This document shows, one piece after another, positions 12,001 through 18,000 of a stretch of DNA of 30,415 nt; position 1 is the first letter of the stretch; every line of letters starts with the position of its first letter. Origin of the DNA: an archaeon (GTDB lineage Archaea; Iainarchaeota; Iainarchaeia; Iainarchaeales; 0-14-0-20-34-12); contig JBBSVU010000006.1 in the NCBI GenBank assembly GCA_038046645.1, positions 138,681 through 169,095 on the forward strand, read 5' to 3'. A program made the position numbers.

Positions 12001-15000
12001 AATATAAACAGCACCAGGTGCAGCAAAGACAAATTTTCCAAAAGTAATTATTGGCAAAGCTAACGCCAATAGCAATCCAAAAGTCCATGCCTTATATTCT
12101 GCATGCGCACCATAATGCTTTGCAACCTGCCTATGCCCTAACTCATGCAAGACAAAGCCCGTGCCAACACCAACAAGGCTTATTGGCAAAGCCATAACAA
12201 ATGAAACTAAATTTAAAAGGTTAGGGCTTAGGACAAAAGCAAATGCTATGCTTATTGTTATCCAGCTTATAAACAAATCCTTCTTCTCCTGCGATTTCAT
12301 ATTAACTTATCTTCCTGCACATTGTTTTAAATAACATTTCCTTCAATATTAATTTGCTAAGCTAGGAGGTTGGTTAGAATGGAAAATAAAGCGCAGATAT
12401 CGTTAGAGCTGATTATCTTATTGGCAGCAGTTATAGCCTTAGTGCTCTTGATTGTAACAAGGTTGCAGTCAACAGGCGAATCAGCATCAAAGAAGTTTGA
12501 TACAAAGGTAAAGGAAGTGCTGGATGAAATCGAAGACATATAAATCAAATAAAAACAGTTCTTTTGCAAAAGGCCAGCTAAGCCTTGAATACCTGATGTT
12601 GCTTGCAATTTCCTTTTCCATGCTTGCGATATTTATTTCAACCGCGGGCAATTTTTTGGATAAATCAGAAATTTCCTTAGAAAAACAGAAAGCCAAGCAT
12701 TTTTCAGAAACATTTAACCAAGCAATATCTGAATTAACTTTATTTGGTGCAGGCTCAGCTAAGCAGGTTCATTTATACAATAAATTCCCATGGACCATTT
12801 TAATTAATTCACATGAAATTTCAATTAATATTTTGGCAAAAGGGCAAGAAACAATTAATGTTACTGCCAAAATTAGTGAATCTGCAGATATTGAAGAAAC
12901 TGAAATTGTTTGTGTTGGTTGCAGTTTGTTGATTTCAAAAAACAAGGATTATTTTTCAGCCTCAATTATAGCAAATGACAAAAATAATTGACCAACTCAA
13001 TGTCATTTGCTATCTAGTAAACGATAATATTTGTTCAAAAATTAATGTCGTTTGCTATAGTAATAAACAGTAACCGCAATTGCTATTTTTTCATCATCCC
13101 AAAAAAGTTTTGCATCCTCAGTTATTCGCTCATTATTTCCTTTGCAAAATTCTTCATTCACTGCTGTTTCCTTTTGATTTATATAAATAAATCCGCAGTT
13201 TTCTGGAAATAACATCTTGAAATTATTGGCCATCTGATCTATGTTTAAATTTTCAGCCATAAGCCAGTGTTTCAGCAAATCATGCTCTTTCTGCATTATG
13301 TAAAGTTCATCAAGCAGCTTATCCGCCCCATTTGCCGGGGAATAATCCGCAAAAATAAGAATCATTATGGTGAAAAAAGCCGCAAGCAATGCTTCAAATG
13401 AAAAATTAAAGCCCTGCTTATTCACATAAACCAACCCTCAAAATTGATACTATATCCTCAAATATGACAAGCCTTTCAACAGCCAGCGCTTTTTTGTTGC
13501 ACTCATTTATTTTGATATTTTTGCCATTCTCTGCAACAATCTCAACCCAATATTTTTTGCCATCATATGGTATTTTTCCAATTTTCACCCGATTCTCAAT
13601 AACCATTTTTTTATCATAATCAAACATAGCTAACCCCTTTCCTTCAGGCAGCTTTGCCAAGGAATCGGCAAGCAGCAAAATTTGGGTCTTTTCATCAAAA
13701 TCATTTAGCATCTTATTTTCTTTTTCAGCCAATCCTTTTATTTCAGAAAACCAGATTGAGGATAACATTAGGAGTAGAATTACGGCGAAACAGGCATCAG
13801 CAGAAAAAAGCAAACCCTTTTCATCCATTTACCCACCGTTATTTAATTCAAAAAATGTTTTTTCCCTGAGTTTTTCAGAGCAAGATTCATTGGTTTTAAT
13901 TTCGCTTTTTGTAGCATATCCCGAGTTTGCAATCGCTGAACAATAAGATATTTTTGCATTCTTGCCCAAGCCCTCGGGCAAGCCTTCAAGGCCTTTTGTG
14001 ATATTCACGAATAGCAGTATTGCTGCAAGAAATATTGAAAATGAAATGATGAATTCAATGCTAATCTGCCCATTCATATTCCCATATCCGCAAAGTATAA
14101 TCTGCAGGAATACTGAAAAAAGAAGAAACATTCCCTGCTTTTATTTCGCAGGAAGGTTCGAGATTTTTGAGAATGCCTGCATGCATCGTTACCTCAGCCA
14201 GCTTTGCTTGCCAGAAATTAACCATATTCACACTTAGCAAGCTAGACAATGCTTCTTCAGTAATCTGCTTTTTTTCTTGCCCTATCTTGTCCAAAATATT
14301 GCAAGAAATACCTTCCTCCTTGCTAATTCCATTGAAATAATCCGCCAGGTTTTTTGCAATTTGGAATTTTACTGAAAAAGGATCGTTGTTCCCAAACTGA
14401 AGATTTTCTATCACAGTTTTCCGTATTATCTGCTCAACGTTTATTTCAATTTTTGTTCTTATGAAATCTGTTTTCTCGGCGCGCATTGCCTCTATTGCAG
14501 CTTTTTTTAATAAAGCGGTATCCTGAAATGATTGCTGCATCAAGGAAAAATAACTGCTGCAATATGCAATAACTAAAATTATTGTAAAGAACCCTTTTTT
14601 GTTCATGGCAACCCTTAACAGCAAGGAATTGTTTGTGAAAAACAGTTAAAAGGTTAGCGTTAAACTTCCAAGTTGCTTTTTTTGCCAATATCTAAATTAT
14701 AAAAAGAACAATAAGCAAAATAAAAGCAATTGTTGCAATTGTTCTGTTGTAATAAGCAACAAGCCCAAATACTGCTGGTGCGAGAATCATAAACGGTGCG
14801 AAATCAGGAAATCTTAATATTGATATTGCCCCGAATACTGCCCCTATTGTGAATAGGAAAAAAAGAAAAGCGATAAAAGTGCTTATCTTTTGCCCAATAT
14901 AATCCTGAATTTTGTTGAAGAGCTGATCTACTGTTTGTGCCCCAGCATTGTTGGAAGCCGCAGGAGCAGCATGTTCTGCATGCCCAGCATCTCCATGGCT

Positions 15001-18000
15001 ATCATGTCCATGCGTATCTGACATAATTTCATATTATTAAGGAACTAATTTAAATGGATTGCTTCCTTCATCTCAAGGATAGTTAATAGTTCAAAGGTAA
15101 GGTTTCTTGAGATTTTGTCCCTGCCCATTATCAGCCTCTCAAATATGAGGTCCTTTCTTGCCCTTAATTCACTAATGCTCATTTCAAGCAAATCAAACTT
15201 ATTGGTCAATTTCATTAAACCACCAAGTGATTAATAATTCAGCCCTTTATAAACAAGAGGAGAGAGTAGATTTCCCCTGAACTCCGTCTTTTCTTTTTCT
15301 CTTAGGAAGAGAAAAAAGAACCAAGTAAAATTATTTGAATTTTACTGGTCCAACAAACTTTGTTTGTTGACCCTTTCAAACTGTTGTTTGAAAAGGTCCA
15401 ATAAAATTTTACAGAAATTTTATTTGGAAATATAGGCTGTCAAAAGAAAAAGAGAAAAGAAAATATGGGTTGCCGAAAGAAAAGAGAAAGAAAAAGTAGG
15501 TTACAACTAAAATCCAAAGGATTTTAGTGTACATTAAAATTCATAAGAATTTTAATTGTATTAAAAGAAAGAAAAGAAAGGCCCCCGGGTTCAAAGAAAA
15601 GAAAACAGATCTGTTGCCAAGAAAAAGAAATTAAACTATTTAGGTAAAGAAAGAGAAACTACAAGTTGCACCAAAAGAAAGAGATACAATTATATTCATT
15701 TCAATCCTTTTCTTATAATGCCTAATATTTTTTCAAGCAAGCCTTCTGAGAATCAGATATTCAAGGATGAGCGTTATTTATATCCTGAATTCATACCAGA
15801 AAAGCTTTGTTATAGGGATGTACAGTTGGATACGCTTGTAGGAATTCTAAATCCTGTCCTGAGCAACAAAAAAGTCCTGAATATATTTATCCATGGCCCT
15901 ACTGGCAGTGGCAAAACAGTGACTATGCGATTTGTTTTAAAAGAATTGGAGAGCTATTCTGACAGGGTAAAGAGCCTTTATTTAAATTGTTTTGAATTCA
16001 ATACAAGGCATTCAATTCTGTCACAAATTGCCACATTATTAAAGATACCCCTGCCAAGAAGGGGAATAGCAACTGATGAGGTTTATTCTAAAATATTGCA
16101 GCAGATGAAGAAAATAGACTTTACTCCGATAATATTCCTTGATGAATTTGATAGGTTGATTGATGCAAATGAAGCCTCTTCCCTGCTATATGATTTATTG
16201 CGCGGGGATTATGGGATGAAATCCTTTATTCTTGCTCTTATTTCAAACAAGAAAGAAATCATTGCTGAATTGGATGCGAGGGTAAAAAGTTCATTTATGT
16301 ATGAAGAGATAGAATTTCCTGCATATGAACCGCAGCAGATCAAGCAGCTTTTGAAGGAAAGGATTGAATATGCATTTCTGCCAAATGTGGTTGAGCCAGA
16401 TGTGATTGATGTAACTTCAGGCTTTTCTGCAAAGCATAATGGTGATGTAAGATTAGCCATTGAATCCCTGCTTAAGGCCGGAAGAAATGCAGAGAATGAT
16501 AATTCTAAAAAAGTAAAATTGGAACATTTGAGAAAAGCGATTGATTCAATACAGCAAAGGCTTCCCCTGAAACATATTCCCCTGCTTGATGGTAACGAAA
16601 AAGCAATTTTAAAAATTTTAGTTTCAAATGATGGCATTTATTCCGGGAACCTATTTAAATCATACCGTTCTTCAGTTAAAAATCCATTAACCCAGAGGGG
16701 ATTCAGGACAAAGCTAGATTCCTTGGAGAATAAGAATCTGATAAACCTTACGCTCAAAGAAAAAGGGCTAAGGGGAAAAACAAGGCTGGTAACCTTGAAT
16801 ATCCACAGGGATGAGATTGAAAAGCTGGTTAAAGGCGGCAAGTAGGCCATTTTTTTGCATAAAAAGGATTTTATAGTATAACAGACTTAAATATAAAAAT
16901 AAATGCGGTCCTTTACTACAACTTAAAGCATTGCTTTGAGTGTACAATTAAATCCAAAGGATTTAATTTGTATCTAGCAAAAGACAATAATAATTCCAAA
17001 ATTGAAGTATTTTGCTATAAATAAAAAAGATATCTGATGTATTATGAAAAGGTTTCTTCCATTCCTATTTATTTTATTAATTATGCTGGCAGGCTGTTTG
17101 CAGCAGAATCCTGAAAAGATAACAGATTCTTTTGTACTCAATCCTTATTTAACCGATGCAAAGGTTTCTGAAACAATGCAATATGTTTCAAAGGGGCAAT
17201 TTGCTGAAGGCTTATTAAAAGTAAAGGCAACATATAATTCTGCCTATTTGTTGAATAATTATTCATATTATGAGCCTGATTCAAATGAGGATTATTTCTT
17301 TGAGCCGCAAGAAGGCTATTTTTACCTTGTTGTGAATGTTACCCTAAAGAACCTTAACGAATATGGGGTAATGACAGGTGCAAACGATTTTAGCGTTGTG
17401 GACAAGGAAGGTTACAGGTTTTACCCAAAATCATTCCATTCAGATAAGGCAATTATTATGATAGATTATATTGACCCGAATAAGGAAGCTAATGGAGAGA
17501 TGTTGTTTGAAATTCCTGATTTAAAGAAAAATCTGCTTTTGCAGTATAAATTAGCCTCAGGCTATTCCTGGCAGATTAATGTAAATTCATTAAATTATAA
17601 ATAATTTAGCCTCTTAGCAATATTTTTACAATTGCATTATTTTTCAATTCACTTGTTTCCGAAATTTTTTGTTTTGTCCTGCAGTCTATTGCTCCAAGAT
17701 ATTTTTCAATAAAATCAGTATGAATCTTTCCTGCTAGGTCCTTTGAGTTGCTACCTTCCTTTATTAGATAAGCATCAGGAAGTATGTGGCCTTTTGCAGA
17801 AATCCATTTATTCTGGTCCTGCACAGGATAAACAACAATCAATTTTAGCAATTCAAATGCAGTTTTGTTTATTGCTTCCTGCACTCCGGTTGAACCATAT
17901 TGCTTGAGGATATTCTCCTTTATGAATTCAAGGGCTTTTTTCTGCTTCTCAGGCAGTTCTTTTTTAACAATAAAATCATTGCTCCCTGGAACATATTCAA

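Follow-up and report, generated by a model that had tools for sequence, protein, structure and literature searches.

Pilin-like genes behind a DNA-repair-regulon gene in a groundwater archaeon: probably two adjacent features with separate switching

Introduction

The Ups locus of the Sulfolobales (subsystem 4I) contains two pilins, UpsX, a platform protein and an ATPase, and is UV-induced as a unit (PMC13705601). The same source places system 1, the Epd pilus of Methanococcus maripaludis and others, in the Nanobdellati (DPANN) among other groups, and describes further M. maripaludis pilins in a locus apart from the Epd machinery (PMC13705601). For Saccharolobus islandicus, a second source gives the DDRE a 20-bp consensus, AATAGTTTCRGWDTACTCWS, placed at -23 to -55 (PMC6061795).

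Here we analyze a 30,415-nt stretch of DNA (the window, to which all positions refer) from a tiny groundwater archaeon in which conserved pilus-subunit genes lie directly behind g00450, a small gene of a DNA-repair set. The study genome is called G000 and its sister species in the same genus G001. The survey's reading was that a repair-regulon box drives the six genes g00450-g00445 as one operon for damage-induced pili, the counterpart of Ups. Like the Ups locus, the locus combines type IV pilin-like genes with a nearby DNA-repair-linked promoter element; unlike Ups, the cluster lacks an ATPase, platform or UpsX-like gene, the pilus machinery elsewhere carries no box, and the box belongs to the neighbour g00450. 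The likeness to the Epd pilus extends to an ATPase accompanied by two platform genes (at two loci here) with Q+1 class III pilins, to a short main-type pilin without a globular domain (here g00443, 57 aa), and to pilins in a locus apart from the machinery. The four minor-pilin-like proteins of the host, which have no Pfam or NCBIfam match, share no sequence family with the named Epd minor pilins.

The box itself resembles the Orc1-2/DDRE system in being an approximately 20-bp cis element of genome-maintenance promoters with similar end blocks, AGTT(T)C and TACTC, and an Orc1/Cdc6 gene divergently adjoins the g00450 box. It differs from the DDRE in its spacer (10 nt versus 4 nt) and in lying upstream of the TATA box, about -45 to -70 from the ATG. 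Both host Orc1/Cdc6 paralogues best match Orc1-1-type solved chains, not ORC2.

Results

The box and its promoter comprise the following features.

15264-15283, minus strand: box core AGTTCAGGGGAAATCTACTC, a 20-mer scoring 42.1 bits; promoter-proximal element of a DNA repair and replication regulon
15246-15253, minus strand: TATA box TTTATAAA of the box promoter, ending 30 nt before the ATG of g00450 and kept in G001 as TTTAAAAG
15263-15605, minus strand: promoter module of about 250 bp, near-identical to DNA ahead of radA and ahead of a gene of 87 aa
15045-15215, minus strand: g00450, 56 aa, helical-looking, of no known family; conserved direct target of the box by sequence comparison

A matrix built from 25 sites delimited the site set sharply and far from chance: the genome scan returned 24 sites of at least 31 bits and three near 22 bits, with just two others reaching 12 bits. 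Each of the 24 lies just upstream of a TATA box. The genome has 25 sites with at most four mismatches, and a called ORF follows 54-239 nt downstream of 24 of these, the remaining one standing at a contig end. The box upstream of g00450, which the survey had reported, is a genuine promoter-linked element. It is common to radA and nurA, as claimed, and extends to herA and mcm (both with inteins) and nre; behind further boxes stand genes for six LAGLIDADG proteins, at least seven TnpB genes and small uncharacterized genes. TnpB and LAGLIDADG genes are regulon members in this genus. With mcm and selfish nucleases in the regulon, the description 'damage-induced' is itself unproven, whatever signal the box may answer.

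The promoter module is 97-100% identical to positions 27727-28023 and 8105-8337 of contig C6, and its g00450 copy contains an insert of about 110 nt with four hairpins (about 15316-15436; fold z -7.8). Diverged versions of one element stand at the same place ahead of the TATA box in five of five relatives checked, each time at two or more of four genes (radA, nre, nurA and that of 87 aa).

Within the order, 21 of 151 genomes have a homologue of g00450, which has no Pfam family; between families the identity is 32-35%. As previously noted, the G001 protein is 88% identical and its gene is preceded by a box variant, TTCAGCGGAAATCTACTC; the surrounding gene order is also kept there. A box-like element was found upstream of g00450 in 15 of the relatives' 21 loci, compared with 2 of 16 g00449 upstream regions and 112 of 2100 random windows used as controls. 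The variants at g00450 co-vary with the radA and nurA boxes genome by genome: G111 has ACCGGAAACGAGCTC before g00450 and ATCGGAAACAAGCTT before nurA, G123 has TTCAGGGGAAGyGA in common upstream of g00450, radA and nurA, and the g00450 variants of G030 and G135 are CGGAAATG and CGGAACysAGCT, respectively. These comparisons single out g00450 as the conserved box target. The box and its TATA box would drive this 56-aa protein as an old, conserved member of the radA/nurA/herA/mcm/nre regulon.

The pilin-like genes occupy two convergent groups; a slash marks the putative signal-peptide cleavage site.

14061-14606, minus strand: g00448, the largest pilin-like protein, starting MNKKGFF; KG/FF, class III-like, with no acidic residue at +5/+6
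13829-14077, minus strand: g00447, pilin-like, starting MNGQISIEF; NG/QISIE
13418-13828, minus strand: g00446, pilin-like, starting MDEKGLLFSADA; KG/LLFSAD
13042-13425, minus strand: g00445, pilin-like, GTG start, NKQGFNFSFEALL; QG/FNFSFE
12524-12991, plus strand: g00444, pilin-like; KG/QLSLEY
12370-12543, plus strand: g00443, a pilin of 57 aa, too short to hold a globular domain; KA/QISLE
12967-13063, no strand: MITE-like hairpin repeat of about 97 nt between the convergent operons, overlapping both gene ends (fold z -6.6), with copies elsewhere

All six ORFs from g00450 to g00445 lie where the survey had placed them, and its prepilin-like N-termini were recovered; the class III motifs are conserved in orthologues. 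The Pfam Class_IIIsignal scores were reproduced at 17.9 bits for g00447 (E 0.0029), 19.4 for g00444 and 29.5 for g00443; only the last, which is highly conserved and a candidate for the major subunit, exceeds the cut-off of 23.7. Orthologues of g00444 occur in 15 further loci. At 82 aa, g00447 is shorter than its orthologues (about 115), and C46 and C66 are kept in at least 90% and in all, respectively, of 12 of these. Orthologues of g00446 keep a KG.xFSxD motif and those of g00445 a KGFxFSxE motif. The AlphaFold model of g00448, which has 18 orthologues, consists of helices 3-70 and 76-95 and a beta sheet (pLDDT 93.7); in that of g00446, helix 3-59 is followed by beta strands (pLDDT 78.0). 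No solved pilin was found to match in structure.

Complex modelling predicted that g00445 contacts g00448 and g00446, with a score of 0.91 against 0.67 for the best control; that mark was attained by 116 of 157 solved complexes, compared with 2 of 215 mismatched pairs. The runs agreed in at least 92% of contacts, with partner pLDDT of at least 82. On these models the four minor-pilin-like proteins probably form a complex. Bacterial minor-pilin and pseudopilin operons (GspH-I-J-K, PilV-W-X-FimU) likewise encode four small class-III-signal proteins that are translated together, of which one lacks the acidic residue. The host proteins resemble these in being four, small, co-translated and predicted to form a complex, but their signal is of the archaeal type, and no sequence or fold match to bacterial minor pilins or pseudopilins was found. 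A role at the pilus tip or in priming would be only an analogy.

That the class-III-signal proteins might not be subunits of an external pilus, and might instead build another device resembling a type IV filament, such as a short pseudopilus or a scaffold for surface anchoring, or be plain membrane-anchored surface proteins, seems to us highly improbable. It would fit with the finding that g00445, g00446 and g00448 have no Pfam or NCBIfam family (Pfam assigns none to g00449 either, in line with the survey), that their acidic residue is at +6 instead of +5 or is missing, and that no ATPase adjoins them. However, g00443, a typical short Q+1 pilin, scores above the Pfam cut-off, two Q+1 pilins with four small proteins form a conserved architecture, in the g00448 and g00446 models a beta sheet comes after a long helix of the pilin type, and the genome encodes two complete machineries and two peptidases.

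In the pilus-subunit reading, the six class-III-signal proteins constitute an order-wide pilin cassette that would comprise a short pilin lacking a globular domain, a Q+1 pilin and four proteins of minor-pilin-like type. The g00443-g00448 cassette recurs in the order (automatic label: Iainarchaeota) in 21 of 25 loci. Beyond g00448 the junctions are tight, namely a 17-nt overlap with g00447, abutting g00447 and g00446, and an 8-nt overlap between g00446 and g00445. TATA-like elements precede g00443 in 18 of 20 loci and M50 in 14 of 19, and are scarce at the internal genes g00444 (1/16, the window's copy included), g00445 (1/18) and g00446 (2/13). Genes g00443-g00444 would form a second unit, convergent to g00449-g00445.

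Between g00450 and the pilin-like genes lie the following features.

14692-15024, minus strand: g00449, 110 aa, small membrane protein with a His-rich N-terminus, of no known family
15047-15054, minus strand: TATA-like element TTTAAATT, 22 nt before the ATG of g00449, overlapping the last codons of g00450
14657-14676, minus strand: degenerate operator/TATA remnant GCAACTTGGAAGTTTAACGC, to be compared with TCGTCAATCAACGAAATATTTAAC in L029 and L033

Across the order, 99 of 151 genomes have a match to g00449 at 40-47% identity, a single one in each except G025 (two); the Atlas clusters of g00449 are annotated 'hypothetical protein' and most commonly labelled Candidatus Iainarchaeota. The gene accompanies pilin-cassette genes in 21 of 25 loci, and all 16 loci that hold both genes have g00450 upstream on the same strand. 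Between g00450 and the point where the g00449 match begins there are 20 to about 1100 nt, other genomes having 78 to about 1100 nt. In G030 the interval contains an apparent opposite-strand ORF, lipoprotein-like by eye, and runs of T6-T8 after the g00450 stop; T runs also follow that stop in G033, G018 and G028, and in G002 a hairpin precedes T5. By a simple consensus count, 15 of the 16 g00450-bearing loci have a TATA-like 8-mer whose end lies 20-22 nt ahead of the ATG of g00449, and the element was present in 15 of 26 loci of the first set. Its conservation in G000 and G001 alone is uninformative because it overlaps the last g00450 codons. From this element g00449 would start its own transcript, probably leaderless, which in this genus probably extends into g00448-g00445, genes that are tightly coupled.

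In 12 of 18 loci the g00448 orthologue has its own TATA-like element, frequently accompanied by a palindromic operator. In four of 25 loci the g00448-g00445 unit is not downstream of g00449; there it has a TATA-like element with a palindrome (L027, L029, L033) or a palindrome with no TATA-like match (L034). The survey's central claim, a single pilin operon of six genes under the control of the box, is not supported by this comparison: across relatives the box belongs to g00450 alone, and the g00449 and g00448 orthologues have TATA-like elements of their own.

In the study genome the spacing is as tight as the survey had described, with gaps of 20 and 85 nt where it had counted 21 and 86. The 20-nt gap between g00450 and g00449 contains no run of four or more T in either G000 or G001; box-promoter transcripts should enter g00449, and such read-through may occur in this genus. 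Upstream of g00448 the promoter looks decayed: G000 has no TATA-like match, has lost the palindrome and lacks an ArsR-type orthologue, g00448 is preceded by a Shine-Dalgarno-like stretch of the GGTTG type, and the remnant stretch is conserved between G000 and G001. With these features, the pilin-like genes probably rely on upstream transcription, which could include box-driven transcripts. The shrunken gap and the decayed promoter might thus allow box transcripts to raise expression of g00449 and the pilin-like genes at any time when the regulon is active, on top of a basal g00449 promoter. We regard such partial coupling, which would imply no dedicated DNA-exchange function, as unlikely but worth considering. 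Against it, the conserved TATA-like element at g00449 suggests that transcription starts there independently, a stretch of T7 within g00449 (14858-14864) could stop part of the transcripts, and g00450 and the pilin units are clearly apart in relatives.

Pilus machinery is encoded elsewhere in the genome, where the survey had correctly located two A24 prepilin peptidases and three strong T2SSE ATPase loci. At each of two loci an ATPase gene stands with two T2SSF platform genes. One locus also encodes an A24 peptidase, together with four small ORFs whose N-termini are class III-like with Q+1; three of the four match Pfam Class_IIIsignal. The nearer machinery locus is about 21 kb from the cassette. 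A matrix scan of the genome found no box at either of the two Epd-like ('system 1') loci or at the two peptidase genes, and Pfam and NCBIfam searches detected no ATPase, platform or UpsX-like gene in the pilin cluster; the survey, too, had seen no ATPase there.

These results make it highly improbable that the six genes form an operon for damage-induced type IV pili that serve DNA exchange as a functional counterpart of Ups. What speaks for such an operon is a box common to radA, nurA, herA, mcm and nre, its presence ahead of g00450 in the sister species also, the tight gene spacing, and the end blocks common to the box and the S. islandicus DDRE (PMC6061795). However, the cluster has no assembly genes of its own and both complete machinery loci and the peptidase genes lack the box; the cassette is order-wide, occurring also in genomes without detectable g00450; some of its arrangements cannot be box-driven; where g00450 and the cassette are apart, the box stays with g00450; and the regulon includes mcm and selfish nucleases. 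Damage-induced pili in this host are not supported.

Discussion

The earlier reading holds in part. Its pilin-like genes, its promoter-linked box and the regulon shared with repair genes stand, and the single box-driven pilin operon is not supported. We consider it reasonably probable that g00450 and the pilin genes are two adjacent features with separate switching, as the comparison with relatives indicates. Assembly of the cassette pilins most likely falls to one of the genome's two Epd-like machineries, whose genes lie at other loci.

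The box and the genes behind it

The element that precedes g00450, a 56-aa ORF beside orc1/cdc6, is a 20-mer lying upstream of a TATA:

window 15264-15283, minus strand: box, AGTTCAGGGGAAATCTACTC

In the 1.17-Mb genome this sequence occurs in 25 copies with at most four mismatches. With a matrix derived from these copies, 24 sites reach 31 bits or more and three about 22 bits; just two others score 12 bits or above. Downstream of 24 of the 25 sites lies an ORF of 35 aa or longer, at a distance of 54-87 nt in 23 cases and 239 nt in one; the 25th site sits 80 nt from a contig end. 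A TATA-like sequence follows within approximately 10 nt at nearly all sites. We regard the box as a real element. The genes it precedes are radA, nurA, nre, herA and mcm (the last two both intein-bearing) and g00450, together with six free LAGLIDADG proteins, at least seven TnpB (IS605 OrfB) proteins and several small or unknown ORFs. The name repair-regulon box, under which the element had been introduced, is fair as to membership. It does not carry over to induction by damage, as mcm and selfish nucleases are also members and belonging to the regulon is therefore no proof of such induction.

The TnpB and LAGLIDADG sites, found on contigs C9, C11, C14, C16, C20, C23 and C25, have the same box-plus-TATA promoter as radA, and in this genus such selfish nucleases appear to form part of the regulon. 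The idea that the box is the left-end hairpin of IS605 elements was rejected, as only part of the TnpB copies show the flanking inverted repeat. Box-driven ORFs of 87, 504, 264 and 61 aa gave no Pfam match at E 1 or better, and the 87-aa protein had no sequence match in the PDB; that it binds single-stranded DNA was an unsupported guess and was dropped. The box is part of a promoter module of approximately 250 bp whose copies before g00450, radA and the 87-aa gene are 97-100% identical:

window 15263-15605: promoter module copy
C6 27727-28023: promoter module copy
C6 8105-8337: promoter module copy
window 15316-15436: insert of about 110 nt in the g00450 module copy, four hairpins (fold z -7.8)
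C17 37770-37962: diverged module copy, insert region included

g00450 as the conserved target of the box

The exact box pattern occurs at 21 sites in the sister species, G001, and is at chance level outside the genus. This result is misleading, because diverged versions are seen once each genome's own radA and nurA promoters are read. In each of five relatives, at least two of radA, nre, nurA and the 87-aa gene have such a version, at the corresponding position ahead of the TATA:

G030: TTCAGCGGAAATgyACTC
G111: CGGAAAy
G014: CCGGAAAC..C.CCCTC
G002: ACCGGAAAyACCGGAAGTCTACyT
G065: GACCGGCACG

In G111, G030, G123, G135 and G059 the element upstream of g00450 matches the variant that the same genome has at radA or nurA, while G002 and G018 do not fit this co-variation. 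No clear copy of its own variant precedes g00450 in G002 (110-192 nt upstream examined), and G018 has a different variant before g00450 and none seen at its radA or nurA. The radA genes of G033 and G135 are intein-bearing, so their upstream regions were left out of the comparison.

Of 151 genomes of the order, 21 have a g00450 homologue; identity across families is 32-35%. A profile search of a large protein collection retrieved 14 proteins, three with a source name, which is hypothetical protein. Neither g00450 nor g00449, the small membrane protein that follows it, came near a cut-off in Pfam or NCBIfam. In 15 of the 21 loci the region upstream of g00450 has a GGAA-core element 14-30 nt ahead of a TATA-like 8-mer, mostly at -60 to -63; the same test was positive for 2 of 16 g00449 upstream regions and 112 of 2100 random windows. 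Given this frequency and the co-variation of the variants, g00450 is, as judged from promoter sequence, the conserved target of the box.

The DDRE of S. islandicus is a promoter element with a 20-bp consensus (PMC6061795). The box shows partial resemblance to it, but spacing and position differ. The genome has two Orc1/Cdc6 paralogues:

window 15718-16845: Orc1/Cdc6
C23 8724-9833: Orc1/Cdc6

Both best match the Orc1-1-type chains 2qby_A and 2v1u_A, with a lower score against the ORC2 chain 1w5s. Judged by its best solved match, neither paralogue resembles ORC2 or Orc1-2. The copy in the window is the more divergent, with 267 vs 375 bits to TIGR02928 and 150 vs 241 bits to 2qby_A.

Separation of g00450 from the pilin-like genes

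Downstream of g00450 on the minus strand lie g00449 and the pilin-like genes g00448-g00445; with the convergent g00444 and g00443, the latter four make up the pilin cassette of the order. The six minus-strand ORFs lie where the survey's finding had placed them. The overlaps or abutments it reported among the remaining genes hold, and the two gaps, put there at 21 and 86 nt, measure 20 and 85 nt. Gene order and N-terminal motifs are shared by G001. From this arrangement all six genes had been read as one operon for damage-induced pili.

The g00449 family is present in 99 of the 151 genomes, as a single match in all but one, and its Atlas clusters are named hypothetical protein only. Among 25 loci examined, g00449 accompanies pilin-cassette genes in 21 and stands alone in four, and an orc1/cdc6 match is in the same fetched stretch in 19. 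It is usually flanked by orc1/cdc6 and, at its opposite end, by an M50 protease and Cdc48. The g00448-g00445 unit is not downstream of g00449 in four of the 25.

In all 16 loci where both genes were found, g00450 is upstream of g00449 on the same strand. The g00449 match starts 20 nt away in this genome and G001 and up to approximately 1100 nt away elsewhere. In G030 the gap contains an apparent opposite-strand ORF (read by eye), and T6-T8 runs follow the g00450 stop. T runs are also found there in G033, G018 and G028, and in G002 a hairpin is followed by T5. In 15 of the 16 g00450-bearing loci the g00449 ATG is preceded by a TATA-like 8-mer whose end lies 20-22 nt away, the spacing that what is established about archaeal promoters predicts for a leaderless transcript. 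In a first set of loci, TATA-like sequences precede g00443 (18/20), the M50 gene (14/19), g00448 (12/18), g00449 (15/26) and g00450 (4/5), and the counts before internal genes are 1/16 for g00444, 1/18 for g00445, 2/13 for g00446 and 1/3 for g00447. Transcript boundaries are what we infer from such signals. All 17 sequencing runs on record for window 12300-15800 are classed as DNA (a guessed class), and 16 of them contain all or part of the stretch.

Many g00448 orthologues, at the minor-pilin operon, have a palindrome directly before their TATA:

L029, L033, L034, L027, L032, L035, L036, L044-L048: palindrome of type TTCGTCAATCAACGAA upstream of g00448 orthologues

Between g00449 and g00448, G019, G021 and G024 have a gene taken by eye for an ArsR-type HTH regulator, and the palindrome has the appearance of an operator at which a dedicated regulator would act. 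This genome and G001 show loss or decay of both. Upstream of g00448 in this genome, the palindrome is reduced to GCAACTTGGAAGTTTAACGC, there is no TATA-like match, and the gene is preceded by a Shine-Dalgarno-like stretch; no orthologue of the ArsR-type gene was found in the genome. The g00448 promoter looks decayed here, and this, the lack of an ArsR-type orthologue and the Shine-Dalgarno-like stretch together make it probable that g00448-g00445 share a transcript with g00449.

The 20-nt gap after g00450 in this genome contains no run of T and so leaves room for read-through from the box promoter. We consider such read-through, the surviving part of the six-gene operon, a minority possibility. 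An extended version is that the genus lost the terminator and spacer after g00450 along with the minor-pilin operator and regulator, that the repair promoter now reads into g00449 and the four minor-pilin genes, and that damage or the replication and repair programme would thereby alter an Epd-like pilus at its tip or priming complex. We think this improbable; if true, a DPANN archaeon would have reached, independently of Ups, a way to link cell contact or DNA uptake to damage.

A repeat of approximately 97 nt (window 12967-13063) lies between the convergent g00444 and g00445 and overlaps the last codons of both. It folds strongly (RNA MFE -30 kcal/mol, z -6.6), and there are five more copies in this genome and others in G017, G010 and G027. 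G001 does not have it at this spot, and its g00444 and g00445 overlap tail to tail. The repeat has the look of a MITE-like insertion by which both C-termini were remade. The only Rfam match in window 12300-15800 was below threshold (pntA, 24.9 bits vs a gathering score of 54).

Pilin-like nature of the cassette products

The prepilin-like N-termini had been read correctly, and we could reproduce the Pfam Class_IIIsignal (PF04021) scores on which the survey's finding had drawn: against a cut-off of 23.7 bits, g00443 scores 29.5, with g00444 (19.4) and g00447 (17.9) below it, while g00445, g00446 and g00448 have no match to this family. A class III-type N-terminus, comprising a short charged leader, G or A at -1 and a hydrophobic helix of about 20 residues, is kept in all six cassette proteins and their orthologues, with the types KA|QISLE, KG|QxSxE, KG|FxFSxE, KG|xxFSxD and KG|FF. 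The pilin-like nature of the products is supported. As g00443 is only 57 aa long, it has no room for a globular domain. Across 12 g00447 orthologues C66 is invariant and C46 is present in at least 90%. The g00447 protein (window 13829-14077) is 82 aa in this genome and 83 aa in G001, vs approximately 113-123 aa in most orthologues, and it is without the C-terminal strand ending in the conserved HY.

The model of g00448 (pLDDT 93.7) has a helix at residues 3-70 and then a beta sheet of seven strands; that of g00446 (pLDDT 78.0) has a helix at residues 3-59 followed by strands. As modelled, both proteins have the pilin architecture of a long N-terminal helix and a packed beta sheet. Foldseek searches with the two models gave no match in the PDB at E 0.001 or better, and the best Z in a wide VIA-align search with g00448 was 6.4, the rows being mostly long-helix matches. 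These fold searches provide no evidence for or against a pilin fold. With its first 29 or so residues removed, g00445 was predicted to bind g00448 and g00446 with a score of 0.91 vs 0.67 for the best control; 116 of 157 solved complexes attained that mark, as did 2 of 215 mismatched pairs. The complex runs agree in at least 92% of contacts, with a partner pLDDT of at least 82, and the models support a putative binding of g00445 to both proteins.

Pilus machinery and comparison with Epd and Ups pili

As reported by the survey's finding, machinery is present elsewhere in the genome: two A24 peptidases and three strong T2SSE matches. Complete sets, comprising an ATPase and two T2SSF platform genes, are found at two loci:

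C6 ~125-132 kb (L069): T2SSE, two T2SSF, A24 peptidase with Arc_PepC, four small ORFs
C9 (L071): T2SSE, two T2SSF, adjoining 769-aa VWA protein

The four small ORFs of L069 have class III-like N-termini with Q at +1; three match Pfam Class_IIIsignal, one of them above the cut-off, and the 60-aa pilin of this locus resembles the 57-aa g00443. The 769-aa VWA protein (C9 ~33.0-35.3 kb; L071 7537-9846) has the class III-like N-terminus NKGFVFTTE, of the g00445/g00446 type, and is a candidate pilus-borne adhesin.

Two platform genes are the mark of 'system 1' (Epd-like) filaments, whose main pilin is without a globular domain and which are reported in Nanobdellati too (PMC13705601). Both marks are found here, an ATPase with two platform genes and, in g00443, a short main-type pilin. 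Genes for the presumed cleavage of the cassette pilins by an A24 peptidase and for their presumed assembly by an ATPase and platform are present, and we infer that one of the two Epd-like machines most likely assembles the cassette products.

Neither machinery locus has a box, and the box at the cluster precedes g00450 only. None of the twelve ORFs scanned in window 11306-17604 matched T2SSE or T2SSF, and the nearest strong ATPase match (C6 130348-131160) is approximately 21 kb away. The Ups locus of Sulfolobales has pilins with UpsX, a platform and an ATPase and is UV-induced (PMC13705601). Unlike that locus, the g00450-g00445 cluster is without an ATPase, platform or UpsX, and its proposed standing as the Ups counterpart is not borne out. 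The damage-induced-pili reading, whose sole basis is adjacency, is unsupported.

Were that reading true, DPANN archaea would have a damage-induced organelle for DNA exchange; the evidence favours instead a conserved pilin cassette of the ordinary kind, belonging to an Epd-like pilus. The box is real and is seen in relatives across the order; it co-evolves and labels a regulon comprising radA, nurA, herA, mcm and nre, whose promoter TnpB and LAGLIDADG elements have acquired as well in this genus. The 56-aa protein beside orc1/cdc6 is among the most faithful members of this regulon. The link to pilins is a neighbourhood effect only, and the testable targets are the regulator and the small protein g00450.
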